The position numbers and the translations under genes were made by a program. The notes below the pieces were generated by a model. That model had not been told where the DNA came from, made no database searches, and was given only the letters and a program-made list of their open reading frames with translations. DNA of 64,000 bases from an uncultured Bacilli bacterium (GTDB taxonomy: Bacteria; Bacillota_I; Bacilli_A; RF39; UBA660): the NCBI GenBank assembly GCA_934130375.1, contig CAKOXW010000004.1, forward strand, positions 25,421 through 89,420, given 5' to 3'. This document shows, one piece after another, positions 16,671 to 61,329 of this stretch; position 1 is the first letter of the stretch; every line of letters starts with the position of its first letter.

Positions 16671-16689
16671 TTAAGCCCACGACTACACA
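16671..16689 (-). repeat. terminator-adjacent conserved motif, copy 1 (plus strand TTAAGCCCACGACTACACA)
   Basis: On the minus strand it directly follows the tRNA-Trp terminator hairpin (16706-16724) and T-run. Confidence 0.8.
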
Positions 16690-16739
16690 TAAATAAAAGA
16701 AAAAAGAAACTAGCAATTAGTTCCTTTGTAATATCTTAA

Positions 16740-16813
16740 TGGCAGGGGTGGAGAGAATCGAACTCCCAACAGTGGTTTTGGAGACCATTATTATACCATT
16801 TAACTACACCCCT
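16740..16813 (-). tRNA. tRNA-Trp (anticodon CCA), CCA encoded
   Basis: Reverse complement reads AGGGGTGTAGTTAAATGGTATAATAATGGTCTCCAAAACCACTGTTGGGAGTTCGATTCTCTCCACCCCTGCCA. Acceptor AGGGGTG/CACCCCT, anticodon loop CTCCAAA. Confidence 0.9.
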
Positions 16814-16863
16814 GTAGTACTAAAATTATAACACATATTTTAAGTGCAAACAATAAAGTTATT

Positions 16864-17382
16864 CTAATTTCCTAAAATTTTTGTTATAATTTCTAAATTA
16901 TATAGTGTTTCATCATCATTATTTAAATCAACATCATCAGTTCTATCAGTTTGTAAACCCAAAAAATGACATATATTATGAACAACCCATTCATTTTTCA
17001 TTGCAGGAATAGTCCTATTCCACTTACTTGGATTTTCAAGTTCATATTTTTCTAATACGCTTAATATTTCTTCAATATCTTCCCTATTAGTTATTTTATA
17101 AGAAGACATAATTTTCATATTCGCATCACTTAATTCTCTTCCATCTACACAAACTATATCATTACTTAAAGAATTCTCTAAATAATACTCCTCTTCACCC
17201 AACTTACATATATAAATATTACCATTTCTATAAGTTCCATAAGGTAAAATACTTGTACTACAAATCTCAACAATACTTTTATCTTCTACCTCCAAGGTAT
17301 CTTGTTTAAATAACAATAATACAAGCATACAGTAAAATAACAAATCTTTCTTCTTTCTAATTTTATCATTTCCAAATTTCAT
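16864..17382 (-). CDS. hypothetical protein with N-terminal hydrophobic segment
   Basis: 172-aa ORF. No family recognised. Confidence 0.45.
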   Translation of the reverse strand: MKFGNDKIRKKKDLLFYCMLVLLLFKQDTLEVEDKSIVEICSTSILPYGTYRNGNIYICKLGEEEYYLENSLSNDIVCVDGRELSDANMKIMSSYKITNREDIEEILSVLEKYELENPSKWNRTIPAMKNEWVVHNICHFLGLQTDRTDDVDLNNDDETLYNLEIITKILGN

Positions 17383-17468
17383 TTTATCACTTCCAAAAAA
17401 ACAAGGTATTATTTTACTTTAATGTTAATATTTTGTCAACTTTGGAATAAAATATAAAGGTGATATAT

Positions 17469-17891
17469 ATGCTTATAAAATATACTTCTAAGGAATTAGA
17501 TTTACTTGCAAGATTAATGAGAGCAGAAGCTATAGGTGAAGGAAATCTAGGTATGCTTATGGTTGGAAATGTTGCTACTAATAGAGTTATTGCTGATTGT
17601 CTTGATTTTAAAAATATAAAAACTATATATCAAATGATATATCAAACACCTGGTGGTTTTTCAGGAAAAGATAGTAGTTTATTCTACAGCAATCCAACTA
17701 CAAAATTAAAACAACTTGCAGAAAGAATATTAAGAGGAGAAACATTTCATCCTGCAACTAATTCATTATGGTTTTATGCCCCAGGTAATAACACATGCAA
17801 AAACACATGGTACAATCAAAAATTATCAGGAAGATACAAAAGCCATTGTTTCTATGAACCAAATAGCGGGGTATGTAATGAATTACATTAA
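17469..17891 (+). CDS. cell-wall hydrolase of the SleB/CwlJ (Hydrolase_2) type
   Basis: LLARLMRAEAIGEGNLGMLMVGNVATNRV... matches the conserved N-terminal block of spore cortex-lytic SleB/CwlJ catalytic domains. ATG at 17469 with RBS AAAGGTGA. Confidence 0.7.
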   Translation: MLIKYTSKELDLLARLMRAEAIGEGNLGMLMVGNVATNRVIADCLDFKNIKTIYQMIYQTPGGFSGKDSSLFYSNPTTKLKQLAERILRGETFHPATNSLWFYAPGNNTCKNTWYNQKLSGRYKSHCFYEPNSGVCNELH

Positions 17892-17903
17892 AAAATATCG
17901 TTT

Positions 17904-19577: not shown

Positions 19578-21239
19578 TTATGCGCTAGTCTTCCCACATC
19601 TTCCATAGGGATTTCTTATTGGATTCTTATCAATATATTTAAAAGTGTAATCATCAAGTATTTTATATTTAAATTTAATTGTTATGTTTCTGTCTTCATC
19701 TGCTTCTATTCTATCTATTAGGGTAAATAACAAGTCTCTATTTGGTTTTTCTATATTTAATAATTCTTTTATCTTTTTTGTATAATTTGGTATTTTATTA
19801 GCACTATTTTTTCTCTTTAAATTTTCAAGTTCTATTTCTTCTAATTTATCTTTTAAGTTTCTCATTTTTTGTTCATAAGGAGATACTATCATTTTGTATG
19901 ATTCTAAAGAAATATTACCATCAATTCTATCTTGATAAACTATTTGAATATTAGAAGATAATTTTAAAAAATCTTTTTCTATATCTTTCTTTATTTCATC
20001 AAGTGATTTAGTACCCGAATTAGTTCTATTAATTATTTCATCATTTAATTCTTTAATACTTAATCCTTTAAATAAATTAGATAATAATTTGTTTAATTCT
20101 TCTAATACTTCTTCTTCGAAATAATCATATGGAAAGAAATGAGCTTTACATCTTCCTCTAATTGGGTCTCTAGCATATCTATTACAATTAATAGTCCAAT
20201 AATCATGATTTTTTCTATAAGTTACTCCTAATCTATTTCCACATTCTTTGCAATAGATTAATCCTTCGAGTAATCTAATTGGTCTTTCTGTTTTTTTAGT
20301 AACAGTTCTATTATGATTATCCCTTTTTTTATTTATTATTCTAAATGTCTCTTTATCTACTAATGGTTCATGAGTACTTTCTACTATTACCCATAAGCTT
20401 TGATCTAGTGTTACTTTCTTTTTAGATTTATAACTAATATTAGTTTGAGTATGTTGTACCATATCACCAGTATACATTCTATTTTGTAATAGTTTTTTAA
20501 CTGAATGTATTGTCCATATATCTTTTTCTTTTACTCTTGAAGATATTGGTAAATTCTTATAAGCACTTGGTGTTGGTGCTCCTAATTTAGTAAGACGAGT
20601 TGCTATTTCAGATATTCCTATATCATTTGCTCTCCATTCAAACATTTGCTTAACATAAGGTGCCGTATTAGGGTCTACAATTAGATGTCCTTTATCTTCA
20701 GGGTCTCTCATATAACCATAACATGGTTTACTACCTATAAATTTACCATCTTTTCTTTTGGCATCCAATACATTTCTTATTTTTAATGAGTTTTGTTTAC
20801 TATAATAATCATTGCAAGCAATAATGAATGTTGATGAATCATTACTTGCTTGATTTTTCATACTATCATAGTTTTCAACAATTGATATAAATCTTACTTT
20901 ATTTTCAGGAAAATAAGTTTCAATATAATATCCAGTCATTACATGATCTCTACCTAGTCTTGATAAATCTTTTACTACTACAAGATTAATTTTTTTATTC
21001 TTTATATCTTCAATCATTCTAATAAATCCTGGTCTATCAAAATTTGTTCCCGAATAACCATCATCTACATACTCATCTATTAGATTAAATCCATTTTTTA
21101 AACAATAGTCTCTTAATATTTCTTTTTGATTAGTAACACTTTCACTATCTGACTCATATTTTTTATCTTTATCTTCTTGAGAAAGTCTAATATAAATACC
21201 TGCATTATAATTCATATTTGTTAAGTAACTATAATCCAT
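19578..21239 (-). CDS. large serine recombinase
   Basis: 553 aa. N-terminal resolvase domain (AGIYIRLSQEDKD, VVVKDLSRLGRD), a recombinase domain, a zinc-ribbon (CKECGNRL...C..YARDPIRGRC) and a coiled-coil C-terminus. Confidence 0.9.
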   Translation of the reverse strand: MDYSYLTNMNYNAGIYIRLSQEDKDKKYESDSESVTNQKEILRDYCLKNGFNLIDEYVDDGYSGTNFDRPGFIRMIEDIKNKKINLVVVKDLSRLGRDHVMTGYYIETYFPENKVRFISIVENYDSMKNQASNDSSTFIIACNDYYSKQNSLKIRNVLDAKRKDGKFIGSKPCYGYMRDPEDKGHLIVDPNTAPYVKQMFEWRANDIGISEIATRLTKLGAPTPSAYKNLPISSRVKEKDIWTIHSVKKLLQNRMYTGDMVQHTQTNISYKSKKKVTLDQSLWVIVESTHEPLVDKETFRIINKKRDNHNRTVTKKTERPIRLLEGLIYCKECGNRLGVTYRKNHDYWTINCNRYARDPIRGRCKAHFFPYDYFEEEVLEELNKLLSNLFKGLSIKELNDEIINRTNSGTKSLDEIKKDIEKDFLKLSSNIQIVYQDRIDGNISLESYKMIVSPYEQKMRNLKDKLEEIELENLKRKNSANKIPNYTKKIKELLNIEKPNRDLLFTLIDRIEADEDRNITIKFKYKILDDYTFKYIDKNPIRNPYGRCGKTSA

Positions 21240-21432
21240 CTTCTACCTCCTCATTTTATAGCACTTAACTTTCTTCGAGACAAGTGCATCTTACCATGAT
21301 AAATAAAAATAAGCAAATCATTAGAATTATTTTTCTTCCATAATTTGCTTTAATAAATAATTTAATATTAATTTTTTAAAAATTTCCTTTTTATCTTCTT
21401 TCATACTTAAATTTATGTCTACCATAAAAGGA

Positions 21433-21874
21433 TTATTCACTAGAATCACCATCCTTAAATGGTTTAAGTAATTTTTCTAGTTCAGCTAATTCTTCTTCTG
21501 TTAATGGAACTGATTCACATCTTTTACCATTCCAAGTTTCTACTCCATCATAATCAACACCAATAACTGGACCATCAGCACTAATAAAATCATAATTTTC
21601 TCTTTTGGTTACTGTTACATAAATTGTGTATTGTTTCATTCTTATCAGAATAAGAATTTAAATATCCTTTTAAATATACATTTTTACCCAATAAAAAAAG
21701 ATCTTTATTATTTTCATAAAGATCTTTATAAACTCTTAAACTAGCATAAACTATATTACCATTTTCATTAGTTGAATACTTCTTACAAGTTAGTCCTAAT
21801 GTAATATATCTATTATTAATTATAATATTATTTACCTCACCAGATAATAATATTTCGTTATAAATCATAAACAA
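21433..21874 (-). CDS. OB-fold / SSB-like protein encoded in two overlapping frames (possible frameshift or pseudogene)
   Basis: Track ORFs 21590..21874 and 21433..21639 overlap by 50 nt in frames offset by +1. Read through, ...VYLKGYLNSYSDKNE|KQYTIYVTVTKRENYDFI resembles the last strands of bacterial SSB OB-folds (VEGRLQTRSYE...KRYVTEVVA.N..F). Confidence 0.4.
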
Positions 21875-21980
21875 AACCTCCTGTTTAATTATATATATAA
21901 TTTTTTATATATTAATTATCTTTTAATTTATTTATTATACATGCATATCTATTCATATAATTAATGCACAATACTGCATA

Positions 21981-22379
21981 CTAACCTGAATCATCTTGCA
22001 TATCATTCACATATATTCTTCTTTGAATTAAGACATCATTTTTAATTCTTTCAACATTAATATATCCTTTTTCTTTTAATCTCTTTAAAGAATAATTAAT
22101 TGTTCTTATTTTAACAAAAGATAAATTAGATAATACTTTATTAGTAGCAAAACAATAACCATTTAATCTACTAAGATTATAAATATTACCAAATAAAAAA
22201 CAGTCTGATTTAGTCAAACTGTTATCTTCCATTAATTCTCTTGGAATAATAATAAAATCTTTTTTCAAATACTTTTTTCTCCTTTCTCTAAAATCCCAAA
22301 AACACCAATTTTTAATTGGTATTTTTCTATCAGGATAAGACGATGGTACCGTAACACTAATTTTACTAAGTAAAATCAA
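21981..22379 (-). CDS. winged-helix DNA-binding protein (replication-organizer / HTH_36-like)
   Basis: FIIIPRELMEDNSLTKSDCFLFGNIYNL...INYSLKRLKEKGYINV pattern. The true start is probably TTG at 22268, preceded by AAAGGAGA. Confidence 0.5.
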   Translation of the reverse strand: MILLSKISVTVPSSYPDRKIPIKNWCFWDFRERRKKYLKKDFIIIPRELMEDNSLTKSDCFLFGNIYNLSRLNGYCFATNKVLSNLSFVKIRTINYSLKRLKEKGYINVERIKNDVLIQRRIYVNDMQDDSG

Positions 22380-22546
22380 TGTTTCTTATGGTACCAAACT
22401 TATTTTGCACTTGCAAAATTTATCCCATATAGATAGATTATCTTTGATAAGACATTTAAATATAGGCAAATAAAAAATCCCAATGTAGAAAACATTGAGA
22501 TTTTAATGGGACATTAACAAAAAGTAATACCAACTTTTATTTAAAC

Positions 22547-22652
22547 TATTTACCTACTATAGCAAATATATCAGAAATATTTTTATTATGCAAGTTTCAT
22601 TTTCTTTCCGTTTTTTTCCTTTTTTTGTCATATTATTTACCTATTATAGCAA
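22547..22652. repeat. pair of 19-nt direct repeats in a ~450 bp non-coding stretch
   Basis: TATTTACCTACTATAGCAA (22547-22565) and TATTTACCTATTATAGCAA (22634-22652): one mismatch, 87-bp spacing. Confidence 0.7.
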
Positions 22653-22831
22653 CTTTAACACAGAATTTTTTATTTGTCCATTCGTTTTAAAAGCCATTTT
22701 AACCAATATTTATAACTACATCTATACTTCACTTATGACTTATTTTGCCCTTTAATACTAAGCAATTGTATTAATCAAAAAAATGCAAAAATTTGTACCC
22801 TTTTTGAAAAATCACTAAATTTTTTTAAAAT

Positions 22832-23212
22832 TTATTTAATATCAATATTCCATAATCCTAATTTACCATTAATTACTTTGTCAGATTCTATCTCCTTAAC
22901 ATTCTTCAATTTCCATGCATAACCGCTTCTAAATTTTGAACCATATGCAATATTTTTTTCGTTGATAATTTGTTTATTCAATTCATCATCCAATTCTAAA
23001 CAATCTTCTATTTCAACTTCTGCAACTATTCTTTTGGATGGATATTTTAAATTTAAGTCTTTAAATCTATTCATTTTCTTTTTATCTACACCAGCACCAG
23101 CATGTATTAATATTTTACCCCTATAATTAGTTTTCCATGATCTGAATTCGTATTTTTTTATTTCTTCAGCCACTAAAGTTGCCCATGGTTGTTTCAATGT
23201 TAATACCTTCAT
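22832..23212 (-). CDS. ASCH (PUA-like) domain protein
   Basis: MKVLTLKQPWATLVAEEIKKYEFRSW matches the typical ASCH N-terminal block. ~126 aa. Confidence 0.65.
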   Translation of the reverse strand: MKVLTLKQPWATLVAEEIKKYEFRSWKTNYRGKILIHAGAGVDKKKMNRFKDLNLKYPSKRIVAEVEIEDCLELDDELNKQIINEKNIAYGSKFRSGYAWKLKNVKEIESDKVINGKLGLWNIDIK

Positions 23213-23301
23213 ATTTATCACCAATACTATTTTATCACAATTATTAACCTAATTATTAAGAATTTTTGTTTAATATGTTATAATATATATGGAGGTATAG
23301 T

Positions 23302-24297
23302 ATGGTATTAGATAAAGTAATGTTTGATAAATTACATTCATTTTCAGAAAACATTTGTCAAAATTTTAATATAAAAGAACCAAAAGATAGAAAGTCTCTT
23401 ATTAAGTATCTTGATTCATTACAAAAAGGTATTGATATTGGAGAAATAAACTCTTCATTTATTGGATTAATATTATATGATTTTGTTTCATCAGAAGAAA
23501 CTCGTGATAGACATACAACTGCAAGAATATTTGAAGATATCTTTGGAGAATTAGTTGGTGAAAAAGCTACAGACACTTCATCAAGAGTTAATCCTCAAGT
23601 CCCGGATTATATTAAAGAATATGATAGTTTATGTAATAATGTAGATTGGACGATTAGTCATGATTTAGCAGGTAATAAAAGGGAAAAGGCTGATCACAAA
23701 ATTGATGAATATGAATTATCTATAAAAACATTAAAAGGTAAATTATATAATAAGGATGGCAAAATCATTAATAGTGACTTTAATGATGAAATCAATATAG
23801 GTTCATTATCACATAGAGCCTTATTTATAGGACTAACTGATAAAGCACTTAGTGATAGAAAAGGCGGTTTAGGTTCTCCAAGACAAACAATACCATTGCT
23901 TGAATCAATAAAAGAAAATGATAAATTTGATGAATTTAAAAGCAGAATAAACAATTATGTTAAATATGTATATAGTGATGACATTTTAATCGTTTATAAA
24001 TGTGGATATAAAATGAAAATAACTTTAATACCTGCAGAATCATTCGTTACCGCAATAACAAAAGCTCTTGATGACGAAAATGGTGGAATAAATTCATTTA
24101 CAAAAATTTGGTACAGATGGGAAAATAATAATTTAAGAATAAGATATACAGCATTAATGGACATGATAAGAAAGTTAAATTTAAATTATTATGACACTAT
24201 ATTAAATTTAGAAAATGTATTTGAAAACAAAGAATTTATAGATAATATGATTATCTTAGAAAAACTAATAGATCAAAAAATAGAAGATTTAATTTAA
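23302..24297 (+). CDS. putative type II restriction endonuclease (partner of the adjacent C5-MTase)
   Basis: 331-aa ORF convergent with the methyltransferase gene and overlapping it by 9 nt. No family recognised, so the assignment rests on context only. Confidence 0.5.
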   Translation: MVLDKVMFDKLHSFSENICQNFNIKEPKDRKSLIKYLDSLQKGIDIGEINSSFIGLILYDFVSSEETRDRHTTARIFEDIFGELVGEKATDTSSRVNPQVPDYIKEYDSLCNNVDWTISHDLAGNKREKADHKIDEYELSIKTLKGKLYNKDGKIINSDFNDEINIGSLSHRALFIGLTDKALSDRKGGLGSPRQTIPLLESIKENDKFDEFKSRINNYVKYVYSDDILIVYKCGYKMKITLIPAESFVTAITKALDDENGGINSFTKIWYRWENNNLRIRYTALMDMIRKLNLNYYDTILNLENVFENKEFIDNMIILEKLIDQKIEDLI

Positions 24298-25422
24298 AAA
24301 ATCTTCTATTTTTATTGGAAAAATTTTAGCTATATTATATGCCATTAATACTGGAACAGCATTTCCTATCTGTCTATAACATGCAGAGGTACTTCCTAAA
24401 AACAAAAATGTATCTGGAAAAGATTGGATTCTTGCAACTTCTCTAACACTCATTCTTCTGTTATATTCAGGATGTGGAATAATTAAAGGTCCTCCAGTTC
24501 CACTACCTCTTCCCATAATAGTTGGAGAATGTTTATCCCAATATGTCGGTCTATTTCCAACCATATGTGATTTTTTTTGATTTAATTTACATCTAGACGA
24601 AGTATGATTTAATATTTCACAACCATCAACATTGGTTTCTTCAGGTAATCCATAAATTGTATCTCTTAATGTTTGATATTGATATTTAATATTTGAATCA
24701 AAATAATCATTAATATTTATCTTTTTCTTATTACACAACTTATTAAACATATCTGTAACAACTAAGTATGTATTTTGAGGTTGTTTAATGTTACTATTCT
24801 TTGAATGAGTTTCTTTTACTAATAATCTCTTTTTAACTTTTTTTAAATCAACTGTTTTTTCCATGATAGGCATTTTAATTTTTTGAGCATAGTCATTTCT
24901 TACTCCAAAGATTATTACTCTTTCACGATTTTGTGGAACTCCATAATTCAATGCATTTAACACATTATAATAAACAGTATATCCTTCGCCAATAGATTCA
25001 ATATCTTTGATAATCATTTCTAAGATTTTTCCTTTTTCCATATTTTCTAATCCTTTAACATTTTCTAGTAATATAAATTTAGGATTTTTAATTTTAATCA
25101 TTTTTAAAACTTGCAAATACAAGAAATTTCTTTCATCTTCCATACTTCTATTTATATTAGCTATCGAAAAACCTTGACAAGGGAATCCACCTATAACTAT
25201 ATCAGCATCTGGTATTTCTTTTTTCAATTTTTCTTCATCTTGATTTAAATACTCTAATATATCTCCTCTAACAACCTTGTGTTTATTAAATCTATTAAAA
25301 TTTTCTTCATATGTATCAACTGCATAATCATCAAAATCATTTGCCCACACGATTTTGTGACCAGCTAAAGAAAATCCTAAGTCTAAACCACCAGCGCCAG
25401 AAAACATTGATATTACTTTCAT
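24289..25422 (-). CDS. DNA (cytosine-5)-methyltransferase
   Basis: Motif I FSGAGGLDLG, motif IV GGFPCQGFS, motif VI ENVKGL, motif VIII QNRERV, motif X GNAVP. Confidence 0.92.
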   Translation of the reverse strand: MKVISMFSGAGGLDLGFSLAGHKIVWANDFDDYAVDTYEENFNRFNKHKVVRGDILEYLNQDEEKLKKEIPDADIVIGGFPCQGFSIANINRSMEDERNFLYLQVLKMIKIKNPKFILLENVKGLENMEKGKILEMIIKDIESIGEGYTVYYNVLNALNYGVPQNRERVIIFGVRNDYAQKIKMPIMEKTVDLKKVKKRLLVKETHSKNSNIKQPQNTYLVVTDMFNKLCNKKKININDYFDSNIKYQYQTLRDTIYGLPEETNVDGCEILNHTSSRCKLNQKKSHMVGNRPTYWDKHSPTIMGRGSGTGGPLIIPHPEYNRRMSVREVARIQSFPDTFLFLGSTSACYRQIGNAVPVLMAYNIAKIFPIKIEDFLN

Positions 25423-25453
25423 TATTTATCACTCCTAACTGATTGTTGCCTAA

Positions 25454-27676: not shown

Positions 27677-27679
27677 ATT

Positions 27680-28714: not shown

Positions 28715-28730
28715 ATTATCACCTATATTC

Positions 28731-28770
28731 ATTATATATCATTTGGGACACTTTTGCAATATTCGGGACA
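28731..28770 (-). promoter_or_regulatory. sigma-A-type promoter of the AAA+/S8 operon flanked by direct TGTCCC repeats
   Basis: Minus strand: TGTCCC gaata TTGCAA aag TGTCCC aaatgata TATAAT. -35 TTGCAA (28754-28759), 17-nt spacer, -10 TATAAT (28731-28736). GGGACA on the plus strand at 28745-28750 and 28765-28770. Confidence 0.5.
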
Positions 28771-28842
28771 TATTTTTTATTTTTAGTAAGATGTAAAGTA
28801 AATAAAAAGACAACTTATTTTTTATAAATTGTCTTTAAAATC

Positions 28843-29163
28843 TTAGTTTTTCTCGAAGAAAGTTAATTTACCACAAGAGCCTTCACCACCCCCTGCATTC
28901 AAGTGATTAGATAATACAATTACGTCACTATTATTGCCATATGCATTAAGAATACTTTTCACCCTATCATTAGGATTTATAGTAACATCACTTGTTCTTG
29001 TAATACTAACAGGCACACCTAATTCCTTTAATCTATCATAAATATAATTTGCTATTCTTAAATTATATTCCTTCTCAATAACACCATTGCCAGATGCACC
29101 GGGATCAACTCCTCCGTGCCCTGCATCTACAACCACTTTCTTCGTTGTTCTATCATCATTCAT
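28843..29163 (-). pseudogene. 5' fragment of the interrupted Amidase_3-LysM gene
   Basis: MNDDRTTKKVVVDAGHGGVDPGASGNG...VLSNHLNAGGGEG is the proximal half of an Amidase_3 domain. After GGGEG the frame continues into element DNA (SCGKLTFFEKN*) and stops. Confidence 0.85.
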
Positions 29164-41484: not shown

Positions 41485-41503
41485 TTAAGCCCACGAATAC
41501 ACA
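41485..41503 (-). repeat. terminator-adjacent conserved motif, copy 2 (TTAAGCCCACGAATACACA)
   Basis: On the minus strand it follows the cdaR terminator hairpin AAGGAGA/TCTCCTT (41511-41529) and T-run. Confidence 0.8.
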
Positions 41504-41519
41504 AAAGAAAAAGGAGAAA

Positions 41520-42866
41520 TTATCTCCTTTGACTTATTATAAGTGTTACTTTCTTAACCTTAGTTTCGTAACTAACTCTTACATCACTACCCTCAACCAA
41601 AACATCAACATCATGAGTACCAGGTCCATAACCACTTAAATCTACATAAACCTTAACACTATTCTCATCAATCTCTTTTAATACAGATTCAACACCTTTT
41701 ACTATTACAGTAGCATACTTATCCGCATCAGATGCTGCATTAATAGAATAAGCATCAGATAAATTTTCATATACTAATTGAACATTTTCAAGTTCCTTAG
41801 TAATCTCAGTTTCAACAGATACAGAAACAGAAGTAACAGTTTCACTCATAGACCTAACACCAGCAGGCTTCTTAATAGTTTCAGTAAACTTCTTAGTATC
41901 AGATAAACCTTCTACATTAACAGGAACCTCAATATTCTTAATATTAGCAAGGGCCTCCTCATCACCATATATAGTTACAGTATCAATAGAAGTTGTAATC
42001 TTACTAATTGCTTTACCAAATGCAACTTTACCTTCAGGAATTACCTTAATTGGTACTACCTTAGAAGGAGATGCAATAGTGATTGTAGCATTTACCTTAT
42101 TAGGAACTATTTCAACATCAATAATATTTCCCTTCTTATCATACGCAATTAACTGAACATCCTTTAAAGTCATATCACCAACTTTAGGATTAGCAATATT
42201 ATTAATATCAACTAAAGCCTTAACAGTTGCTACCTCATCTAACTTATATTGAGCACCTTTAATAATTACTTCTTGTCTATCAAGCTCAACCTTAGATATA
42301 GACAATTTATTATTAAGTCTATCCTGATTAATTATATCAGCAGTTAAAGTCCTACTCTCAGACATCTTAGGATATATTACAACTGTCGCAACAGAAGGGT
42401 CTATTTTATAACTAATCGTATCAATTGAACCCTTATACTTTAAACTTACCTTATGAGTACCTTGTTTTAAATCTTTTAAATCAATATCAACCGCATCAAC
42501 AGGCAATTGCTTAGCCAAATACAAATCTGACTTTCTACCTATCATAGTAACATCTACAGTTTCAGGAATACCCTCAATAACATATGCCTCAGCATTATAT
42601 ATTGCATTAACCTTTTGATTATAAAGCACTTCAGCAGAAGTCTCACTAATAGTAGTAGACTTATCATCTACATACAAAAATATACCAACAGCCATTAACA
42701 AAGAAATAATTACTAAACTACTCTTCTTTGAATATAAAGCCTCAAACTTCTTATTATTACTTTTTAATAAATCATTAATTTTAACAAACAATTTAGATAA
42801 TGGTGTAATTAACTTCTTATCAAAAAATCTACCAATTCTTTTTAAAAACAACTTAATCTTACTCAT
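41520..42866 (-). CDS. cdaR: YbbR-domain protein CdaR (regulator of diadenylate cyclase)
   Basis: N-terminal TM segment followed by repeated YbbR-like beta modules. Overlaps the 3' end of cdaA by 8 nt, the conserved cdaA-cdaR arrangement. Confidence 0.8.
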   Translation of the reverse strand: MSKIKLFLKRIGRFFDKKLITPLSKLFVKINDLLKSNNKKFEALYSKKSSLVIISLLMAVGIFLYVDDKSTTISETSAEVLYNQKVNAIYNAEAYVIEGIPETVDVTMIGRKSDLYLAKQLPVDAVDIDLKDLKQGTHKVSLKYKGSIDTISYKIDPSVATVVIYPKMSESRTLTADIINQDRLNNKLSISKVELDRQEVIIKGAQYKLDEVATVKALVDINNIANPKVGDMTLKDVQLIAYDKKGNIIDVEIVPNKVNATITIASPSKVVPIKVIPEGKVAFGKAISKITTSIDTVTIYGDEEALANIKNIEVPVNVEGLSDTKKFTETIKKPAGVRSMSETVTSVSVSVETEITKELENVQLVYENLSDAYSINAASDADKYATVIVKGVESVLKEIDENSVKVYVDLSGYGPGTHDVDVLVEGSDVRVSYETKVKKVTLIISQRR

Positions 42867-48386: not shown

Positions 48387-48518
48387 TTTATCACTTCCTT
48401 GCTTTAGATTATAACAAATAATAACCACTTTAACAATAGAAAATCATTTTTTATTCAATTACTTTACCTGCAAAATAGTTTACATGGTAAACTATTTCAC
48501 TACACAAATACATATTAC

Positions 48519-48537
48519 TTAAGCCCACGAACACATA
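48519..48537 (-). repeat. terminator-adjacent conserved motif, copy 3 (TTAAGCCCACGAACACATA)
   Basis: On the minus strand it follows the short ftsX hairpin AAGAAG/CTTCTT (48544-48561) and T-run. Confidence 0.8.
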
Positions 48538-48560
48538 AAGAAAAAGAAGACTTTGCTTCT

Positions 48561-49460
48561 TTATATTTTTAAATACTTTCTTACTGAGTTAGCACTACCA
48601 AACATACCCACTATTGTTCCTATTCCTAATAATCCTAATGCTACAAAGTACACAAAAGGCATTGGTTCAACTAACTTTAAGAAAGGAGAAATAGTTTCTA
48701 AAGTTTTAACATGATATAAAGCATTATAACCATATATTGTTACTAATATTGGTATTATTGAACCTAAGAAACCTAAGAATAATCCTTCTATTACAAAAGG
48801 CATTTTAATATTAGCATTAGATGCTCCTACTAATCTCATAATCTCTATCTCTTTTCTTCTTGAGAAAATAGTAATTTTTATTGTATTACTAACTAAGAAT
48901 ATAGTTACTAACACTAAAGCACCAACTATACCAATTAATACTTTTTCAACTACTTGTAATACAGATAATAATTGTTCTACAATTCCTTCTCCATAACGAA
49001 CAAGTCCAACTTTTTCAATATTTTTTATTTGATTAGCAGTATCACCAATCTTATCTACATCCTTAACTTTTATAGAAAATGTATCTGCTAAAGGATTTTC
49101 ATCTTTATCCCAACTCTTTATAATAGTTTCAAACACTTGAGAACTATTCTTCCAAGATTCAGCAACTTGTTCCTTAGTTTCATATACAACTGTATCTATA
49201 TTATCAAGACTATCTATTTTATTTTTAATATTCTCTATCTGCTCACTAGTAGCATCATTATCTACAAATACTACTATAGAAAAATCTTTTTTAATTAATA
49301 CTGCAATATTTTCTATATTATAAGATAATACTATAGAAATTGATACGATAAGTAATGTAATAGTTATACAAGAAATTGATGCGATTGACAAAGAAAAATT
49401 CCTAAATACACTTTTAAAAGCATCTCTTATTGCTCTTCCTAATAATCTAATCTGCTTCAT
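48561..49460 (-). CDS. ftsX: cell-division ABC transporter permease FtsX
   Basis: Start MKQIRLLGRAIRDAFKS. TM1, a large extracytoplasmic loop, then three C-terminal TM segments. Overlaps the ftsE stop. Confidence 0.85.
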   Translation of the reverse strand: MKQIRLLGRAIRDAFKSVFRNFSLSIASISCITITLLIVSISIVLSYNIENIAVLIKKDFSIVVFVDNDATSEQIENIKNKIDSLDNIDTVVYETKEQVAESWKNSSQVFETIIKSWDKDENPLADTFSIKVKDVDKIGDTANQIKNIEKVGLVRYGEGIVEQLLSVLQVVEKVLIGIVGALVLVTIFLVSNTIKITIFSRRKEIEIMRLVGASNANIKMPFVIEGLFLGFLGSIIPILVTIYGYNALYHVKTLETISPFLKLVEPMPFVYFVALGLLGIGTIVGMFGSANSVRKYLKI

Positions 49461-50980: not shown

Positions 50981-51794
50981 AGGCATCTGTAATAACAAAG
51001 AACGCATCCTCATCAATCTTACTTATACCTTCTTTTAATCTATAGTACTCTCTTGTAGGTATTACACACATTAACATTTTTTGTCTTTCTTTTGTATATC
51101 CACCCTTAACTGGTATTATTGTTACACCATGAGATAGATTAGACATAATATATTCTTTTACTTTTTCTTCTTCATCAGTAATTATATAAAATGCCTTACT
51201 CTTTGATATACCAAGCATTATTCTATCAGTCATTTGACTTAATAAATATAATACAACTAATGCATAAAGCATATTATTCCAACCATAAGTAAATCCACCT
51301 GCAACAACTATTGAACCATCTACTATAAGCATTGCTGTTCCAATAGATGTATTAAAATATTTAGCAACAATCTGATTTAATATATCAGTACCACCTGTTG
51401 TAAATCCCATCTTAAATGTAAGACCATAACCAATTCCTCTTATAACACCCGCAACAACAGCAATCAAAAACATATCACTATTATCTATATGTATTACATT
51501 AGCAATATCACTAGTAAGAGTTACAAAAAATGGAAATAATATCGTACCCACAACAGACCCCATTGTCGTTTTAACACCAAGTAATGGAAAACTAATAATC
51601 AATACTGCAACACATAATATTGTAATTAATAAATTTGGATCAATTATACTTTTAAAAATATTTGCAATACCGTCAACATCACCTGCAACTATATTATTAG
51701 GTTTTAAAAATAAATTGTACGCAAAAGCATAAAGAAACAAACCTACTATCAAAGTTCCATATCTTTTAACATAACTTAATACTTTTTTCTTCAT
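50958..51794 (-). CDS. YitT family membrane protein (DUF2179), paralog 1
   Basis: Same architecture as paralog 2 (VTIIPVKGGYTKERQKMLMCVIPTREYYRLKEGISKIDEDAFFVI). Confidence 0.75.
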   Translation of the reverse strand: MKKKVLSYVKRYGTLIVGLFLYAFAYNLFLKPNNIVAGDVDGIANIFKSIIDPNLLITILCVAVLIISFPLLGVKTTMGSVVGTILFPFFVTLTSDIANVIHIDNSDMFLIAVVAGVIRGIGYGLTFKMGFTTGGTDILNQIVAKYFNTSIGTAMLIVDGSIVVAGGFTYGWNNMLYALVVLYLLSQMTDRIMLGISKSKAFYIITDEEEKVKEYIMSNLSHGVTIIPVKGGYTKERQKMLMCVIPTREYYRLKEGISKIDEDAFFVITDAYEVKGGA

Positions 51795-52871
51795 TATCGC
51801 ACTTCCCTTAAATAAGATTCAATAAACAAATCTATATCACCATCCAACACAGAATTAACATTACTAGTCTCACAATTAGTTCTATGGTCTTTAACTAAAG
51901 AATAAGGACACATCACATAACTTCTTATTTGAGAACCAAAATTAATCTGCATTTGTTCACCTTTTAATTTTCTCTTCTCTTCTTCTTTCTTATCCAATTC
52001 TAATAAATATAACTTACTCCTTAGTATTTCTAAAGCAAGTTCCTTATTCTTAATTTGACTACGCTCATTCTGACAAGTAACAACTATTCTAGTAGGTATA
52101 TGAGTAACCCTAACCGCAGAGTCAGTAGTATTAACACCTTGTCCTCCCGCACCACTACTTCTATACACATCAATTTTTAAGTCCTCATCCTTAATTACAA
52201 TATCAATTTTATTATCAATTTCCGGAGTAACTTCTACAGATGCGAAAGTTGTATGTCTTCTTTTATTAGAATCAAAAGGAGATATTCTAACTAATCTATG
52301 TACACCTCTTTCACACTTCAAATACCCATAAGCATACATTCCCTCAATTTGAATAGAAATACTTTTATAACCAACCTCTTCACCCGGTTCCTTATCAATA
52401 AGAGTTACTTTATAACCCTTCTTAGAAGCATACCTTGTATACATCCTATAAAGCATTGAAACCCAATCACAACTCTCAGTACCACCCGCACCACTATGAA
52501 TTTCAAGAATACAATTATTACTATCCGCTTCCTTATTAAGAAGAGTTAATATTTCAAAATCATTTACCTCCTTAGACAAATTCTCTATTTCCTCAGATAC
52601 AATAGATAATAACTCACTATCACCAAGACTTTCTCTTAAACTATGCTCTAAATCACTAAAACCATCAACCTTAGAAACAATCTTCTTAAGTTCATTTAAT
52701 TTAAGAACAACCTTTTTACTATCATCACTATTCCAAAAATCAGGTTCCATAGTTACTTTTTCTAATTCAGCAATTTCCTTTTTCTTACCTTCTAAGTCAA
52801 AGTAACCTCCTAAAATCCTCTATTTTATTCTTAATTTCATTTAACAAATTCTCTAAATCTTTATTCTCCAT
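51794..52871 (-). CDS. prfB: peptide chain release factor 2, requires a programmed +1 frameshift
   Basis: Frame 0: ATG at 52871, MENKDLENLLNEIKNKIEDFRRLL, then TGA. The +1 frame continues DLEGKKKEIAELEKVTMEPDFWN... and contains SPF and GGQ (SSGAGGQGVNTTDSAVR). Confidence 0.92.
52796..52811 (-). promoter_or_regulatory. RF2 autoregulatory +1 frameshift site
   Basis: Minus strand AGGAGG TTA CTT TGA C: an SD-like AGGAGG three nt upstream of the slippery CUU UGA C. Confidence 0.9.
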
Positions 52872-54812: not shown

Positions 54813-56042
54813 TTAACCAAGTTTAAACATATCATCTTTGGTACCACTACCATCTATTATCTCTACATTTGAGTTTAGATATACGGAAGGGCGAACACCA
54901 TCGCGATACCACGCACTATAGTAGTCCAAGCGACCGCCACCGCTCACATGGAACACGCCGTCAGCATTAGACGAATGCGGCGATATTGTCCAGTACCAAA
55001 CACCTTTAAATAGCCAGTTATTGTTCTCACACATACTATCACTATCAAATGGATCTTGACTGCAACTTTCATCAGTACTTGCAAATACATAATCGCTTGG
55101 GTACATTAGTCCAATATAATCGCTTGATGTTGGTGCATGATCACTATAAACTTCTGCACCTCTTTCCTTTGTATATAGTTGATTTACTGGCTTTGTTCCA
55201 TAATCAATGCCTCCTAAATTCCACATTGTTTTTTGTATCATACTCTTTGCTGTTGCATTAATTTTATTTATATTTGGACATATTATTGTTGCATTTGTTG
55301 CTCTCGATGCACCACTTGTTTCTGAATGACAAGTTATTGTTTTTCCTTCATAATAGTAATCATTTAAGAATTCTCTTAAATATGAATTCGTCCAGTCGTT
55401 TGTTCCATAATTACTATCAATTCCTTGTGCAGTTGTTTTATTATCAAATGAATATGTAGTTAATATATCATCTCTTACTAATTTTAGATTACTTCCAAAT
55501 ACACCTATTATTCTCCATGCTTCACCATTGAATTCTACATAGTTGTTTGGATTTGCTCCTACATATCTAATATTATTATCACTTGTTGTATCTTTCTCTA
55601 ACCCATTTGCTGTTCTTTTTTCTTCATCATTATATAACTCTTTAATAAAATCAACAGCTGTTTTTGTACTGCCAGTTGAAGCAACTGCTGTTGCATTGTC
55701 TTTCGTACCATTTATTACTGAAAGTCCTTCAAACTTACCCTTTCCTACTAAAGTAACCTTAGCAGTATTACCTTCAAAAGTTATACTACAATTACCATAA
55801 TCAGTATCATTTAATTTTACTACATCACTACAATTGATACTGCCACTATCTTCTAGTATTTCCTTCTCCATCTTCTTTTTTTCTGCCTGACTTGCTATAG
55901 TCTTCGCACTGCTCTCAAATGACGCTATCTTACTATTTTTTATTGTGTCAGTAATTTTAGGTACCGCAATAACAAGTATTACTGCTAGTATTACTATTAC
56001 TGCAAGTAATTCAACCAAAGTAAACCCATTTTTCTTCTTCAT
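54813..56042 (-). CDS. modular type IV pilin-like protein A (prepilin N-terminus + ~120-aa pilin module + ~280-aa C-terminal module)
   Basis: MKKKNG|FTLVELLAVIVILAVILVIAVP is a class III signal peptide with an N-methylation motif. The C-terminal module ends WYWTISP...GVRPSVYL. Start at M9 (RBS AGAGGGTGA). Confidence 0.75.
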   Translation of the reverse strand: MKKKNGFTLVELLAVIVILAVILVIAVPKITDTIKNSKIASFESSAKTIASQAEKKKMEKEILEDSGSINCSDVVKLNDTDYGNCSITFEGNTAKVTLVGKGKFEGLSVINGTKDNATAVASTGSTKTAVDFIKELYNDEEKRTANGLEKDTTSDNNIRYVGANPNNYVEFNGEAWRIIGVFGSNLKLVRDDILTTYSFDNKTTAQGIDSNYGTNDWTNSYLREFLNDYYYEGKTITCHSETSGASRATNATIICPNINKINATAKSMIQKTMWNLGGIDYGTKPVNQLYTKERGAEVYSDHAPTSSDYIGLMYPSDYVFASTDESCSQDPFDSDSMCENNNWLFKGVWYWTISPHSSNADGVFHVSGGGRLDYYSAWYRDGVRPSVYLNSNVEIIDGSGTKDDMFKLG

Positions 56043-56308
56043 TATTTCACCCTCTCTACTATACATAAAGTATACACTGAAATAATATTTTAATCAATTG
56101 ATTTATATTAAAAATATGCTATCATGAATATGTGAAGAAATTCTTCATAAAATATAAAAGGAACACTTAATCAGTAATTAGGTGCTGCCTTACAAATTAG
56201 GTAATTTTTTATTTTCTATTAAAGATAGCGAACCACAAATAGAAGAAGGATAATTACAAGTATTTATTAAAAAAGTACAAGTTTAGTAAATTTGTATTTT
56301 TTTTATTA

Positions 56309-56327
56309 CTTAAGCCCACGAATACAA
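56309..56327 (-). repeat. terminator-adjacent conserved motif, copy 4 (TTAAGCCCACGAATACAAA)
   Basis: On the minus strand it follows the dinB hairpin AATAAGA/TCTTATT (56330-56354) and T-run. Confidence 0.8.
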
Positions 56328-56337
56328 AAAAATAAGA

Positions 56338-57501
56338 CTACTTTATAATCTTATTTCCAAATTTATTTCTTAATTCCTCAATTGTTTTATTAATTTTCTC
56401 ATCGTTAATTTTGGCATCAATATCTTCAAATAAAGATATTTGATAATCATTAGTATCACTAAGAGCATCAAGCCTAATACCAATTAATCTAACAGGAGTT
56501 AAGTCCCAGTGCTCTTTAAATAATTTTTTAGAAACCTCATATATAGTATCACTAGAATTAGTAGCATTATCTAACTTCTTTTGCTTAGATGTAGTTTTAA
56601 AATACTTATCTTTTACTATTATAGCAATTGTATTAGCATATTTATTTTTCTTTTTTAACTCACTTCCAAGTTTAATAGAAATTAACTTTAACTCCTTATT
56701 TATCTCAGTTATATCATCATAATCATAAAGTAAAGTATTAGTTGTACTTATACACTTAGGATCACTTATATCACTTATTACCTCACTATTATCAATTCCA
56801 TTTGCTATATCAATAAGGTACTTTGATTGATTTTTAAAATATGGATATAGTACTTCCTTAGAAGAATGTGCAAGGTCATATATAGTATTTATACCAAGTT
56901 TAATCATTTTCTCTTGACTACTTTTTCCAACACCATATAAATCTCCAATAGGAAGAGGCCACATTTTCTTACTAATTTCATTATTATATAAAGTATGTAC
57001 TTTATTTGGTTTTTCAAAATCAGATGCCATCTTCGCACATAATTTGTTATTAGCAATACCAATATTTACAGTAAATCCAAATTTCTTATAAATTGTATTC
57101 TTTAATTTATGCGCAAAAACAAGTTCATCACCATACAAATTCTTAACCTTACCATAATCAAGAAAGCACTCATCCACAGATACTTGTTCAATATCACTTG
57201 TAATTCTTTTTATATACGAAAAAAGAGCATTAGACATCTTCTTATAAAGTTCATGGTTAGGAGGATATACTTTTAAATCTCTATACTTTTTCCTTGCAGA
57301 ATACAAAGTTTCACCAGTTACAATTCCTAGTTTCTTAGCATATATAGATTTAGCAAGTACAATACCTCTTCTCTTGGTTTCATCTCCACCAATAACTGAT
57401 ACTTCTTTTCTTATGTCATAATGCCCATTTTTAAGCATTTCAACTGCAGTAAAGGACAAAAAAGCATTATTAACATCTATATGCATTATTATCCTTTCCA
57501 C
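56338..57501 (-). CDS. dinB: DNA polymerase IV (Y-family)
   Basis: IMHIDVNNAFLS (catalytic Asp block), VSVDECFLD, ANNKLCAKMASD, GVGKSS. Confidence 0.85.
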   Translation of the reverse strand: MERIIMHIDVNNAFLSFTAVEMLKNGHYDIRKEVSVIGGDETKRRGIVLAKSIYAKKLGIVTGETLYSARKKYRDLKVYPPNHELYKKMSNALFSYIKRITSDIEQVSVDECFLDYGKVKNLYGDELVFAHKLKNTIYKKFGFTVNIGIANNKLCAKMASDFEKPNKVHTLYNNEISKKMWPLPIGDLYGVGKSSQEKMIKLGINTIYDLAHSSKEVLYPYFKNQSKYLIDIANGIDNSEVISDISDPKCISTTNTLLYDYDDITEINKELKLISIKLGSELKKKNKYANTIAIIVKDKYFKTTSKQKKLDNATNSSDTIYEVSKKLFKEHWDLTPVRLIGIRLDALSDTNDYQISLFEDIDAKINDEKINKTIEELRNKFGNKIIK

Positions 57502-57505
57502 ATTA

Positions 57506-59340: not shown

Positions 59341-59341
59341 C

Positions 59342-59866
59342 TTAACCTCCAAAATACATATTATTATCTTTTTCAAATTGCAATGTTGTCTTCTCTCCAT
59401 GACCTGGATAAATAACTATATTCCCATCATATTTTTTAATCTTCTCAATACTCTTTTTCATATCACTATAGTTACCACCTTCTAAATCAGTTCTTCCAAT
59501 ACTATTTCTAAATATAAAATCACCAACAAACATACAATTATCATCCTTAAAGTAATAACTTACCGCATCCTCTTTGTGCCTAGGTGTCTTTATCATTTCA
59601 AATTCAAAATTTGAAATAGAGTTAAAACCCTCTTTTAAATTACTATAATCATACACACCTATGTGGTAGTCATTAACCAAACTAGATAGTGCTCCCACAT
59701 GGTCGAAATGATGATGAGTAATTAGTACACCTACAACATTACCATCAAGGCATTTCTTAATTTTATGATATTCATCTCCTGGATCAATAACTAGAATATT
59801 ATTATCTTTCTTTAAAATATAACAATTTTCTTCTAAATAACCAACTATTACTATTTTAATCTCCAT
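59342..59866 (-). CDS. MBL-fold metallo-hydrolase
   Basis: ITHHHFDHVGA motif (HxHxDH). ~175 aa. Confidence 0.8.
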   Translation of the reverse strand: MEIKIVIVGYLEENCYILKKDNNILVIDPGDEYHKIKKCLDGNVVGVLITHHHFDHVGALSSLVNDYHIGVYDYSNLKEGFNSISNFEFEMIKTPRHKEDAVSYYFKDDNCMFVGDFIFRNSIGRTDLEGGNYSDMKKSIEKIKKYDGNIVIYPGHGEKTTLQFEKDNNMYFGG

Positions 59867-59968
59867 AATATTCACCATTTGAAGTGTAACACAAAATAAA
59901 AGAAAACTCTATTATATTTAATAAAGTTTACATTTTTTTTATTGCATATCAAATAATAAATAAGAATA

Positions 59969-61084
59969 TTATTCACATACTTCAGTCACATTACTTGGAT
60001 AACTATAATTACTATCTTCCATAATTGGATTACCATCAAACACATAACATCCAAGAGTTATCGGTGTATCAGGAAATGCAATTGAAGATATTTGATTTTC
60101 TGCAAATGCTACATCTCCTATTGAAGTAACATTTGATGGTATTGTAATATTTGCTAATTTGTTACTTCTAAATGCATCTCTACCTATGCTTGTCACTGAA
60201 TTTGGTATTACCACTGAAGTTAATCCTAAACCTTCAAGAGCTGCTCCAAGTGGTTTTACCACATAACTATTATTAGAATTATAACTTAATAAACTCACTT
60301 TATAATCATTATTATATGCAGTACCTGTTGGTATAACACCATTTTTTGTAAATGCATAATCTCCAATAGCAACAACTGCCTTACCATCTATTTGTGTTGG
60401 TATTACTACATCAGTTCCTCCACCATTTTCATATGTTACCTTTAATCCGGCATTCTCATAATCTTTTGGTGGTATATCTTCAGCCAACACTAGACTTTTT
60501 AATGAAAAAACATCTTCATCATTTGTTATTGAACCTCCAGTACACAACGTTGTTGCTTGTTCTTCAGTTAAACCCATTGTTTGAAAGTAACTTGTGCACT
60601 TATTCATATCCTTTACTTCAACATTTGCAGCCCCGACTTGATAACCAGTTATTGATATACCGCCTTCTACTTCTTCATAACTAAAATACTTAGCAGCAGT
60701 TTCAACAATTTCTTTCTTAACACTTGATTTTGCACTATCTTTAGTTCCATCTACAACTTCTAAGCCTTCAAACTTCCCCTTACCTACTATTGTTACTTTC
60801 GCATTTCCCTTACTATCAAAAGTAATATTACAACTTTCATAATCATTTGAACTTATCTTAGCAACATCACTACATTTTATTGTACTTGAACCATCTAATA
60901 CTTGATTTTCAGTATATTTCTTTTCTGCTTGACTTGCTATTAACTTTGCAGTTGTTTCTAATGATGCTTCCTTAGAATTCTTAATTACATCACTTATTTT
61001 TGGCATTGCAATAATTAGTATAACTGCTAATATTACTATTACTGCTAATAATTCCACTAAAGTAAAACCTCTCTTTTTCTTCAT
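59969..61084 (-). CDS. modular type IV pilin-like protein B (pilin module + BspA-type leucine-rich-repeat C-terminal module)
   Basis: MKKKRG|FTLVELLAVIVILAVILIIAMP. Residues 1-~120 are ~70% identical by eye to pilin A, including both Cys. The C-terminus has LRR_5-like repeats (VVIPNSVTSIGRDAFRSNKLANITIPSNVTSIGDVAFAEN). Confidence 0.75.
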   Translation of the reverse strand: MKKKRGFTLVELLAVIVILAVILIIAMPKISDVIKNSKEASLETTAKLIASQAEKKYTENQVLDGSSTIKCSDVAKISSNDYESCNITFDSKGNAKVTIVGKGKFEGLEVVDGTKDSAKSSVKKEIVETAAKYFSYEEVEGGISITGYQVGAANVEVKDMNKCTSYFQTMGLTEEQATTLCTGGSITNDEDVFSLKSLVLAEDIPPKDYENAGLKVTYENGGGTDVVIPTQIDGKAVVAIGDYAFTKNGVIPTGTAYNNDYKVSLLSYNSNNSYVVKPLGAALEGLGLTSVVIPNSVTSIGRDAFRSNKLANITIPSNVTSIGDVAFAENQISSIAFPDTPITLGCYVFDGNPIMEDSNYSYPSNVTEVCE

Positions 61085-61110
61085 AATTTCCTCCTCTATT
61101 ATACAAGGTT

Positions 61111-61141
61111 ATTATAGCATAACACCCCCCCCATTTGGCAA
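61111..61141 (-). promoter_or_regulatory. candidate promoter of pilin B with a G8 homopolymer in the spacer
   Basis: Minus strand TTGCCA aat GGGGGGGG tgtta TGcTATAAT. -35-like 61136-61141, extended -10 61111-61119, C8 run on the plus strand 61125-61132. The spacer is 19 nt as sequenced. Confidence 0.45.
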
Positions 61142-61310
61142 TGGACGGAGGCGTTTTTTAGGCCTATTTTTGACGAAAATTTACAAAATTTTTAACATTT
61201 TGTATCAAATATACTACTTTTTTGCTAATTATAACGGGATGTTACATCTATTTAAAATAAAACCTATAATCTTTAAATTATACATTTATAAAAATTAATT
61301 ATAAACTTTC

Positions 61311-61329
61311 TTAAGCCCACGAATACATA
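61311..61329 (-). repeat. terminator-adjacent conserved motif, copy 5 (TTAAGCCCACGAATACATA)
   Basis: On the minus strand it follows the P-type ATPase terminator hairpin AATACTCTTAG/CTAAGAGTATT (61334-61370) and T-run. Confidence 0.8.

Follow-up and report, generated by a model that had tools for sequence, protein, structure and literature searches.

What is the short sequence that follows the terminators of five unrelated genes in this 64,000-nt stretch of DNA from an uncultured Bacilli bacterium (contig CAKOXW010000004.1, positions 25,421 to 89,420), and what might it do there? The stretch, called the window below and used at full length for the copy counts, has a guanine-plus-cytosine (GC) content of approximately 27%, and most of its genes lie on the minus strand, which is also the G-rich strand. 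An exact-match scan for the 12-base core, TTAAGCCCACGA, found all five co-oriented copies that an earlier note on this DNA had described, each on the plus strand, at 16671, 41485, 48519, 56310 and 61311; the fourth had been placed one base too low, at 56309, and the other four positions stood. The full motif in the window is 17 bases long, TTAAGCCCACGA(A/C)(C/T)ACA. Base composition predicts 0.0016 exact copies of the 12-mer on both strands (probability of five or more approximately 1e-16), which bears out the expectation of far less than one. The window holds no copies of TTAAGCCCACGA with one or two mismatches, and a search with the 17-mer TTAAGCCCACGAMYACA that allowed up to three mismatches recovered the identical five sites; 100 shuffles gave a mean of 0.27 matches and none reached five. 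All five copies are intergenic, none lying inside a gene, and their density is approximately 1 per 12 kb.

Our analyses indicate that the motif is a dispersed extragenic repeat of an uncultured gut Bacillota lineage that belongs to no known family and is unusually strictly coupled to intrinsic terminators. On the minus strand each window copy reads as a hairpin, a T-run and then the motif (Table 1), the order that the earlier note had reported. Four of the five hairpins have energies of -8.1 to -13.5 kcal/mol. The exception is the hairpin of ftsX, which is canonical in shape despite its weak energy, with a 7-bp stem followed by a U-run. The upstream genes are indeed unrelated, since tRNA-Trp, a YbbR/CdaR protein, FtsX, a DinB-type polymerase and an HMA P-type ATPase were all confirmed. 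The adjoining hairpins differ in sequence at every locus, each being the gene's own terminator, and the distance from hairpin stem to motif varies from 0 to 20 nt between loci. A terminator scan adapted to AT-rich stems found approximately 20 to 25 intergenic minus-strand terminators in the window, and five of them carry the motif.

The proposal that the motif is not a promoter element was upheld, because no sigma-70-like site was found overlapping it, its distance to the next start codon is variable (approximately 130 to 245 nt) and the downstream gene is convergent at two loci. One of these is the first window copy, whose neighbor, the Sm_multidrug_ex open reading frame (ORF) at 16130-16600 on the plus strand, is the single convergent one noted previously; the other is a retrieved locus, L154. 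No promoter-like site matching at least 9 of 12 positions was found near copies 2 to 4 on either strand. A sigma-70 promoter or regulon operator was rejected as a candidate, there being no fixed spacing to a downstream promoter or gene. The motif is also strand-polar, as suspected, since it lies on the G-rich strand at every distinct locus tabulated. Gene orientation and replication orientation coincide in the sampled DNA, and the polarity could follow either.

Further copies were obtained from orthologous contigs of other strains, from loci reached via a pilin-like homologue and from one metagenome pattern scan. Sequences retrieved from related assemblies carry L numbers below. The metagenome scan gave 14 true matches, on contigs of 24-30% GC, and five chance matches, on contigs of 33-50% GC and without terminator context. 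In total at least 16 distinct loci are available, and the order of hairpin, T-run and motif, as well as the polarity, is identical throughout, so that the association with terminators and orientation holds outside the window as well. The upstream genes of these loci include two tRNAs, cdaR, ftsX, dinB, two P-type ATPases, rplT, nusB, a rhomboid protease, uvrA, tyrS, an ABC transporter and a sigma factor, among others. The closest spacing between any two copies, in the window or at other loci, is approximately 4.8 kb. Approximately 300 kb of the species was sampled, and association frequencies are biased because the motif or pilin-like genes served to retrieve part of this DNA; the only unbiased sample is the window itself, with five copies in 64 kb. 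DNA of the host organism was found in human-gut assemblies (Hadza, ENA and Logan), and membership of Bacillota is consistent with the class B RNase P RNA encoded on one related contig.

The logo from 16 loci reads TTWTR-TGT[AG][TG]-TC[GT]TGGGCTTAA-RTART, a full unit of approximately 27 bp. Three variable positions differ between loci and also between strains at one locus. The T-run breaks off and restarts as TTTT(A) at some ten loci, and the unit therefore probably starts 5-6 nt before TGT. Copies are all-or-none, with no degenerate versions and no shorter enriched core. Position weight matrix (PWM) scores are bimodal, true sites scoring 31-47 bits and nothing falling between 12 and 31 bits at any locus; 7- and 8-mers of the core are found solely within full copies; and no reverse-strand copy, with up to one to three mismatches, was found in any locus. 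Since PWM scores are bimodal, core k-mers are confined to full copies and the window has no copies with one or two mismatches, the copies look copied rather than convergent.

The repeat could not be matched to anything described. Rfam returned no family for the motif even at E<5, and only three tRNAs for the window, which agrees with the earlier note, where it was not recognized as a known riboswitch. No precedent was found in the literature by sequence text or keyword search. A species-representative genome collection scanned with TTAAGCCCACGANNACA gave, among the matches listed, only single chance ones in unrelated taxa, and a viral-contig scan gave two chance matches in DNA of 41-42% GC and no phage link. 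The note had allowed that the motif might be the tip of a longer known repeat. In part this is so, since it is the conserved tip of longer repeated modules (see below); the family that they form is not a known one.

The motif is confined to a single lineage of uncultured bacteria from the human gut. In relatives with marker proteins 80%, 74% and 67% identical, approximately 21 kb each were free of it, as were the cdaR-rplM and dinB sites in orthologous position, whose spacers are compact, and no analogous species-specific tag was found among their repeated 12-mers. In a sister lineage (CdaR 94% identical) the motif is present after cdaR and missing after ftsX, where its absence is an indel of approximately 19 nt (TCTTTATGTGTTCGTGGGC) that ends at a TTAA common to both, according to optimal alignments under three scoring schemes. 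The motif thus appears to be gained or lost as a discrete unit. The cdaR copy is also intact in a lineage with a CdaR 89% identical.

Comparison of diverged haplotypes supports constraint on the core. Only 1 of 60 positions differed in the 12-base core, compared with 60 of 251 in the 48 nt downstream of the motif (Fisher p = 1.6e-5), and the upstream terminators differed at 12 of 177 positions. The core is therefore, to judge from these counts, constrained or homogenized, even in solo copies without recognizable cargo. The density of single-nucleotide polymorphisms climbs towards the 3' end of ftsX; hypermutation at this site was rejected as a candidate, the rise fitting a noncoding region or a recombination border.

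The motif is the fixed upstream border of mosaic, strain-variable intergenic islets. Past TTAA the DNA differs between strains and at some loci is unique sequence, and in each of three unrelated module families the resemblance between loci sets in at the motif. Leaders of pilin-like genes lie directly behind the motif at five or more loci and are homologous from there on. The pilin-like family is large and diverse, and its proteins join an N-terminal methylation motif like that of type IV pilins to BspA-type leucine-rich repeats (LRR) or to DUF6273; the family has more than 4,500 database relatives in gut assemblies (homologues P0121-P0240 here). Most pilin-like leaders carry a G8-G9 tract, which is G8 in the window and G9 in other strains; the tract is also present in the leaders at L135, L136, L161 and L163, and the genes behind it are of the N_methyl + LRR kind or, at L161, a partial pilin-like gene. 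It looks like a slipped-strand phase-variation switch, since it lies inside a promoter spacer of 19-20 nt and a change in tract length should therefore switch the promoter.

The second family is a small toxin-like module, seen at five loci or more. It is intact in L117 and L120 (approximately 3581-3655) and in L163 (approximately 11270-11365), and was deleted in the window strain to a remnant at approximately 56201-56261. The module includes a TTGACA/TATAAT promoter of its own along with repeated AAATTTGTTAAATTTG boxes and structured flanks, and its small hydrophobic ORF is MCMVKDVTVLLLVIILLLFVVRYL (intact in L117 and L120) or MFMVKDLTILLLVFTLLLFFAIYNSVKKSPN. These small ORFs had no Pfam match, and we infer that the module is type I toxin(-antitoxin)-like. 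The third family, a hairpin module of approximately 90 nt, occurs at three loci (ftsX in the window, L145 and L161) and was never seen without the motif. The composite of toxin remnant and pilin leader found behind dinB in the window also stands behind the motif at a second locus, L148.

Alleles of the same site were compared between strains. At the ftsX site, some strains have an mscL leader and others a pilin-like gene, and the two diverge exactly after TTAA. All four combinations of the variant bases before the core with the downstream module occur there among near-identical strains, which fits exchange within the core. One allele of the rhomboid site carries the hairpin module and a pilin gene and the other only a leader remnant and a terminator, diverging approximately 13 nt past the motif, and in the dinB islet both the toxin module and the pilin gene are strain-variable. 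A larger exchange (L135 versus L136/L138 versus L163/L164) involves a pilin-LRR gene that is identical (100% protein) and, with downstream ppa and dut, lies behind nusB in some strains and behind the gene for an 882-aa P-type ATPase in others; in other strains again the 882-aa ATPase gene precedes a different pilin gene and cdsA. The sequences imply a chromosomal rearrangement through paralogous pilin leaders. Public contigs often break at the approximately 30 near-identical N-terminal pilin codons. The right junction of the pilin cassette at the ftsX site was not recovered: contigs stop within the conserved N-terminal part of the pilin, and none of the retrieved homologues gave a match.

Two other structural variants were recorded. 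A 138-nt indel lies at a motif-less intergenic site between an ABC-transporter gene and a PedC-like gene (approximately 12160-12535 in L118, L119 and L121, versus 46006-46228 in the window), and structural variation is therefore not confined to motif sites. In one strain of the sister lineage (L129, 11380-13150), an insertion sequence lies approximately 85 nt downstream of the cdaR motif; it encodes a 453-aa HTH_29 protein and has three AATAATTAGGGAAAATGTCTCTA repeats at its end, and the flanking gene order is rearranged.

The explanation that we favor, tentatively and at rather less than an even chance, is that a terminator-targeting insertion or recombination process uses the motif as a cis-acting site, for docking or crossover or as the end of an element. 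It is based on the all-or-none copies, the strict position and polarity, gain and loss as a block, and module similarity that starts at the motif. The motif would be the recognition or crossover sequence of a site-specific process that places and exchanges modules just past terminators, oriented like the upstream gene. The modules moved would be the pilin-like adhesin cassettes, the small toxin-like modules and the hairpin module, and a copy without cargo would be a docking site that stands empty or has been emptied. The anatomy of the repeat, its copy-like, all-or-none nature, its restriction to one lineage, the indel polymorphism, its place at islet borders and its conserved core are observed. 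We infer recognition by a dedicated enzyme and the place of strand exchange; this, like everything said here about the functional role of the motif, should be read as conditional.

Several observations weigh against a docking site. No recombinase, transposase, HUH enzyme or reverse transcriptase adjoins any copy in the gene tables or ORFs, and the only recombinase of the window, a large serine recombinase at 19578-21239, is part of an unrelated island. In the loci examined no second or inverted copy bounds an islet and there are no arrays, and no target-site duplication was found at the indel of approximately 19 nt. The junction of the pilin-gene indel at the dinB locus lies approximately 215 nt downstream of the motif. 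The breakpoint of the nusB/ATPase exchange is within the leader, and ordinary homologous recombination between paralogues therefore explains part of the shuffling. Solo copies stay intact across lineages, which a binding site beneficial to the host predicts more directly, and the sample is approximately 300 kb, partly retrieved through the motif or pilin-like genes. A bolder version, which we regard as very improbable, is that an undescribed copy-and-paste system writes the approximately 27-bp tag after terminators and that the tags then dock and swap adhesin and toxin cassettes. Such a system could recognize its exact sequence via a nucleic-acid guide, like the bridge RNAs of IS110, or could prime on the T/A-run of the terminator, in a retro-insertion resembling that of short interspersed nuclear elements (SINE) in which unrelated RNAs share one terminal tag. 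It would be a scattered, terminator-anchored counterpart of the integron.

The preservation of solo copies would also suit a lineage-specific DNA-binding protein, for which the motif would be an insulator or roadblock that stops read-through into toxin modules, phase-variable or convergent genes or whatever else follows, or a chromatin boundary mark. We consider this unlikely, though the likeliest of the rivals. A roadblock would explain why the core is constrained in solo copies too and intact at 89% CdaR identity, why the motif stands directly past terminators and is polar with transcription, and why it occurs at convergent junctions, where a promoter role is impossible; toxin-like and phase-variable units are often found downstream. 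However, the motif is present at only approximately one-fifth to one-quarter of terminators, its distance from the hairpin is not fixed, no candidate binding protein is known and close relatives manage without the motif. Binding would also leave unexplained both the all-or-none pattern and the start of similarity in three module families. The same conservation bears on the possibility, which we think distinctly improbable, that the motif is a functionless leftover, namely the 5' end of an ancestral islet leader spread by ectopic recombination and homogenized by gene conversion. Paralogous cassettes clearly do recombine, and the same positions vary at many loci, as such a history would predict. 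Yet solo copies without a paralogous flank stay intact while their flanks diverge by approximately 24%, and colonizing new terminators would require a non-homologous, position-specific step.

A DNA uptake sequence, in which a DNA receptor of the competence or pilus machinery would recognize the motif with its T-run and molecular drive through uptake would maintain it, had been suggested on account of the pilin-like proteins, of which many are encoded. The motif resembles such sequences in being specific to a clade or species, in having a 12-base core with weaker flanks, in lying between genes beside terminators and in being conserved wherever present. Known uptake sequences occur approximately once per kb, against once per 12 kb here, and the single orientation and position of all copies, the lack of a one-mismatch halo and of coding copies, and the origin of one copy as a block indel rather than by point mutation all speak against uptake, which we hold to be a poor prospect. 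We are slightly more doubtful still of an element that acts at the RNA level, either as part of a small or antisense RNA that ends at a bidirectional terminator or as a 3'-end or processing signal of read-through transcripts. By eye, cassette leaders have a conserved opposite-strand TATAAT approximately 40 nt away that points at the motif, which would be single-stranded beside the terminator hairpin. The absence of promoter-like sites near copies 2 to 4 and of any Rfam match is difficult to reconcile with this, the neighboring hairpins have no sequence relationship to one another, transcription is expected to end before the motif and reverse-direction U-runs are poor at several sites.

Comparison with described repeats may help to place the docking-site reading. 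The nearest analogues in working are the borders of Neisseria intergenic mosaic elements (NIME) formed by dRS3, the repetitive extragenic palindromic sequences (REP) with their bacterial interspersed mosaic elements (BIME), integron recombination sites and the way in which group IIC introns target terminators; dRS3/NIME comes closest to a possible mode of action of the motif. Like the motif, dRS3 is a short repeat that borders mosaic intergenic modules near variable surface-protein genes, and it is an integration target for elements with an IS110/Piv-type recombinase. In contrast to the motif, which is asymmetric, locked to a terminator and found only on the upstream side, dRS3 is an inverted repeat (ATTCCC-N8-GGGAAT) that flanks its modules on both sides. 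REP/BIME of enterobacteria and pseudomonads, which are associated with REP-associated tyrosine transposases (RAYT), share with the motif species specificity, dispersal, an extragenic position at operon 3' ends, mosaic combination with other motifs and copies that are maintained rather than decaying. However, REPs are conserved imperfect palindromes, whereas the motif is without self-complementarity and occurs as single copies of one polarity. No RAYT gene was seen in the approximately 300 kb of sampled DNA.

Group IIC introns, to our knowledge the only well-known case of terminator-targeting mobility, home to positions directly behind intrinsic terminators and lie in the same sense as the gene before them. 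The likeness is one of targeting only, since the start of the motif is not the GUGYG 5' consensus and the cargo is ordinary genes and modules; Rfam scans at gathering and E-value thresholds gave neither a ribozyme nor a reverse-transcriptase signal at the motif or close to it. Integron attC and attI sites are similar in being the only sequence common to unrelated cassettes, at a cassette border and beside a hairpin of variable sequence. Unlike in integrons, the motif is preceded by housekeeping genes, and there are no paired R''/R' core sites, no arrays and no integrase in the gene tables; at the tabulated loci, no sequence complementary to the motif was found upstream of the hairpins. The DNA uptake sequences (DUS) of Neisseria and uptake signal sequences (USS) of Pasteurellaceae also have a lineage-specific, relatively GC-rich core of 10-12 bases that is often found at terminators, but the motif is approximately ten times rarer and differs in its single orientation and in having no degenerate halo or coding copies. 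The STAR elements of Staphylococcus aureus are likewise short, GC-rich intergenic repeats of an AT-rich Bacillota genome, arranged in tandem arrays with spacers of approximately 40 nt, whereas the motif is solitary and tied to terminators; there may be a loose likeness between TNTGTTGNGGCCC and TGTGTTCGTGGGC.

Other identities were tried and rejected. The end of a miniature inverted-repeat transposable element or insertion sequence is disfavored by the absence of a terminal inverted repeat at any locus and of a target-site duplication at the indel. For a cassette attachment site with motifs on both sides, no islet bounded by a second copy was found. A target-site duplication (GTAGT...GTAGT or TTTRTGTAKT) is not general, a second TGTRKT being present downstream at few loci only. 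Inspection of a possible mini-ORF, ATG-TAT-TCG-TGG-GCT-TAA, gave a frame and start that vary between copies and no ribosome-binding site. Alternative sigma-factor promoters, a cre/CcpA box, a DnaA box, Ter, dif and parS fail in spacing or key bases against their consensus sequences, and a cin-box (ACGAATA on the other strand) is broken by the variable position K in 7 of the 16 loci. A mimic of the tRNA T-arm lacks the complementary 3' strand, and a shorter Chi-like core, or one like the FtsK-orienting polar sequences (KOPS), is at odds with the confinement of core 7- and 8-mers to full copies.

A docking or crossover role for the motif would amount to a new way in which a small-genome gut bacterium organizes accessory DNA. 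Cassettes complete with promoter and terminator would then occupy sites marked by the tag, between the terminator of one operon and the promoter that follows, the single neutral position in a compact genome. Such a role would explain why strains of this uncultured human-microbiome bacterium differ in their surface adhesins, and could point to an enzyme with exact-sequence specificity next to terminators, of interest to genome engineers. Were the motif a binding site instead, it would couple a sequence-specific element to intrinsic terminators, a combination that is rare in bacteria. A practical consequence is that public short-read assemblies of this organism break at the repeats and at conserved pilin N-termini.

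Table 1. Positions in the window of the motif copies, the terminators before them and the islet features behind them
Feature	Position	Strand	Remarks
Terminator hairpin of tRNA-Trp	16703..16727	-	-8.1 kcal/mol
Motif copy 1	16671..16687	-	After tRNA-Trp 16740-16813; solo copy, convergent neighbor
Terminator hairpin of cdaR	41510..41530	-	-11.5 kcal/mol
Motif copy 2	41485..41501	-	After cdaR 41520-42866; solo copy
Terminator hairpin of ftsX, then U-run	48543..48562	-	Weak, -4.4 kcal/mol, not better than shuffles
Motif copy 3	48519..48535	-	After ftsX 48561-49481
Hairpin module	48431..48518	-	GTGAAATAGTTTAC-loop-GTAAACTATTTT and flanks
Terminator hairpin of dinB	56328..56358	-	-10.2 kcal/mol
Motif copy 4	56310..56326	-	After dinB 56338-57501
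Islet DNA	56067..56309	-	Small toxin-like module remnant, then leader of second pilin-like gene
Pilin-like gene, N_methyl + DUF6273	54813..56066	-	Strain-variable: present in some, absent in others
Intrinsic terminator hairpin of ATPase gene, then U-run	61333..61371	-	-13.5 kcal/mol, z -5.3
Motif copy 5	61311..61327	-	Minus-strand TGTATTCGTGGGCTTAA; after HMA P-type ATPase gene 61341-63365
Pilin-like cassette leader	61085..61310	-	Homologous to L135, L136, L146 and L163 leaders; homology begins right after TTAA
Poly-G tract, G8	61125..61132	-	Between TTGCCA -35-like hexamer and TATAAT
Pilin-like gene, N_methyl + BspA-type LRR	59969..61084	-	

Other features of the window were recorded in passing. 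The serine recombinase mentioned above belongs to a region, 19578-29200, that looks like an integrated island and also encodes a helix-turn-helix protein, an ASCH-domain protein, a subtilase and an AAA ATPase. Within it a C5 cytosine methyltransferase gene (24289-25422) adjoins an unannotated 331-aa ORF on the opposite strand, and the island ends near a truncated Amidase_3 fragment (28843-29163), a full amidase gene lying at 32822-33496. Upstream of rplM, at approximately 41345-41400 on the minus strand, ATTGGTACATTTTTCACATCCCGAAAAGTGTAGTGTTCCGGACTATGAC is conserved in L123, L126, L132 and L169, including relatives whose CdaR is as little as 67% identical. This probable L13-type ribosomal-protein leader scored below the Rfam gathering threshold in the window scan. 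The release factor 2 gene (51794-52750) and its orthologues in L117 and L119 are called as 318 aa or 348 aa depending on the assembly. This length difference is consistent with the usual programmed +1 frameshift of prfB and indicates that TGA is a stop codon here. Finally, a gene of the chloramphenicol acetyltransferase family (12470-13123; PF00302, E 1e-30) is chromosomal in this commensal.

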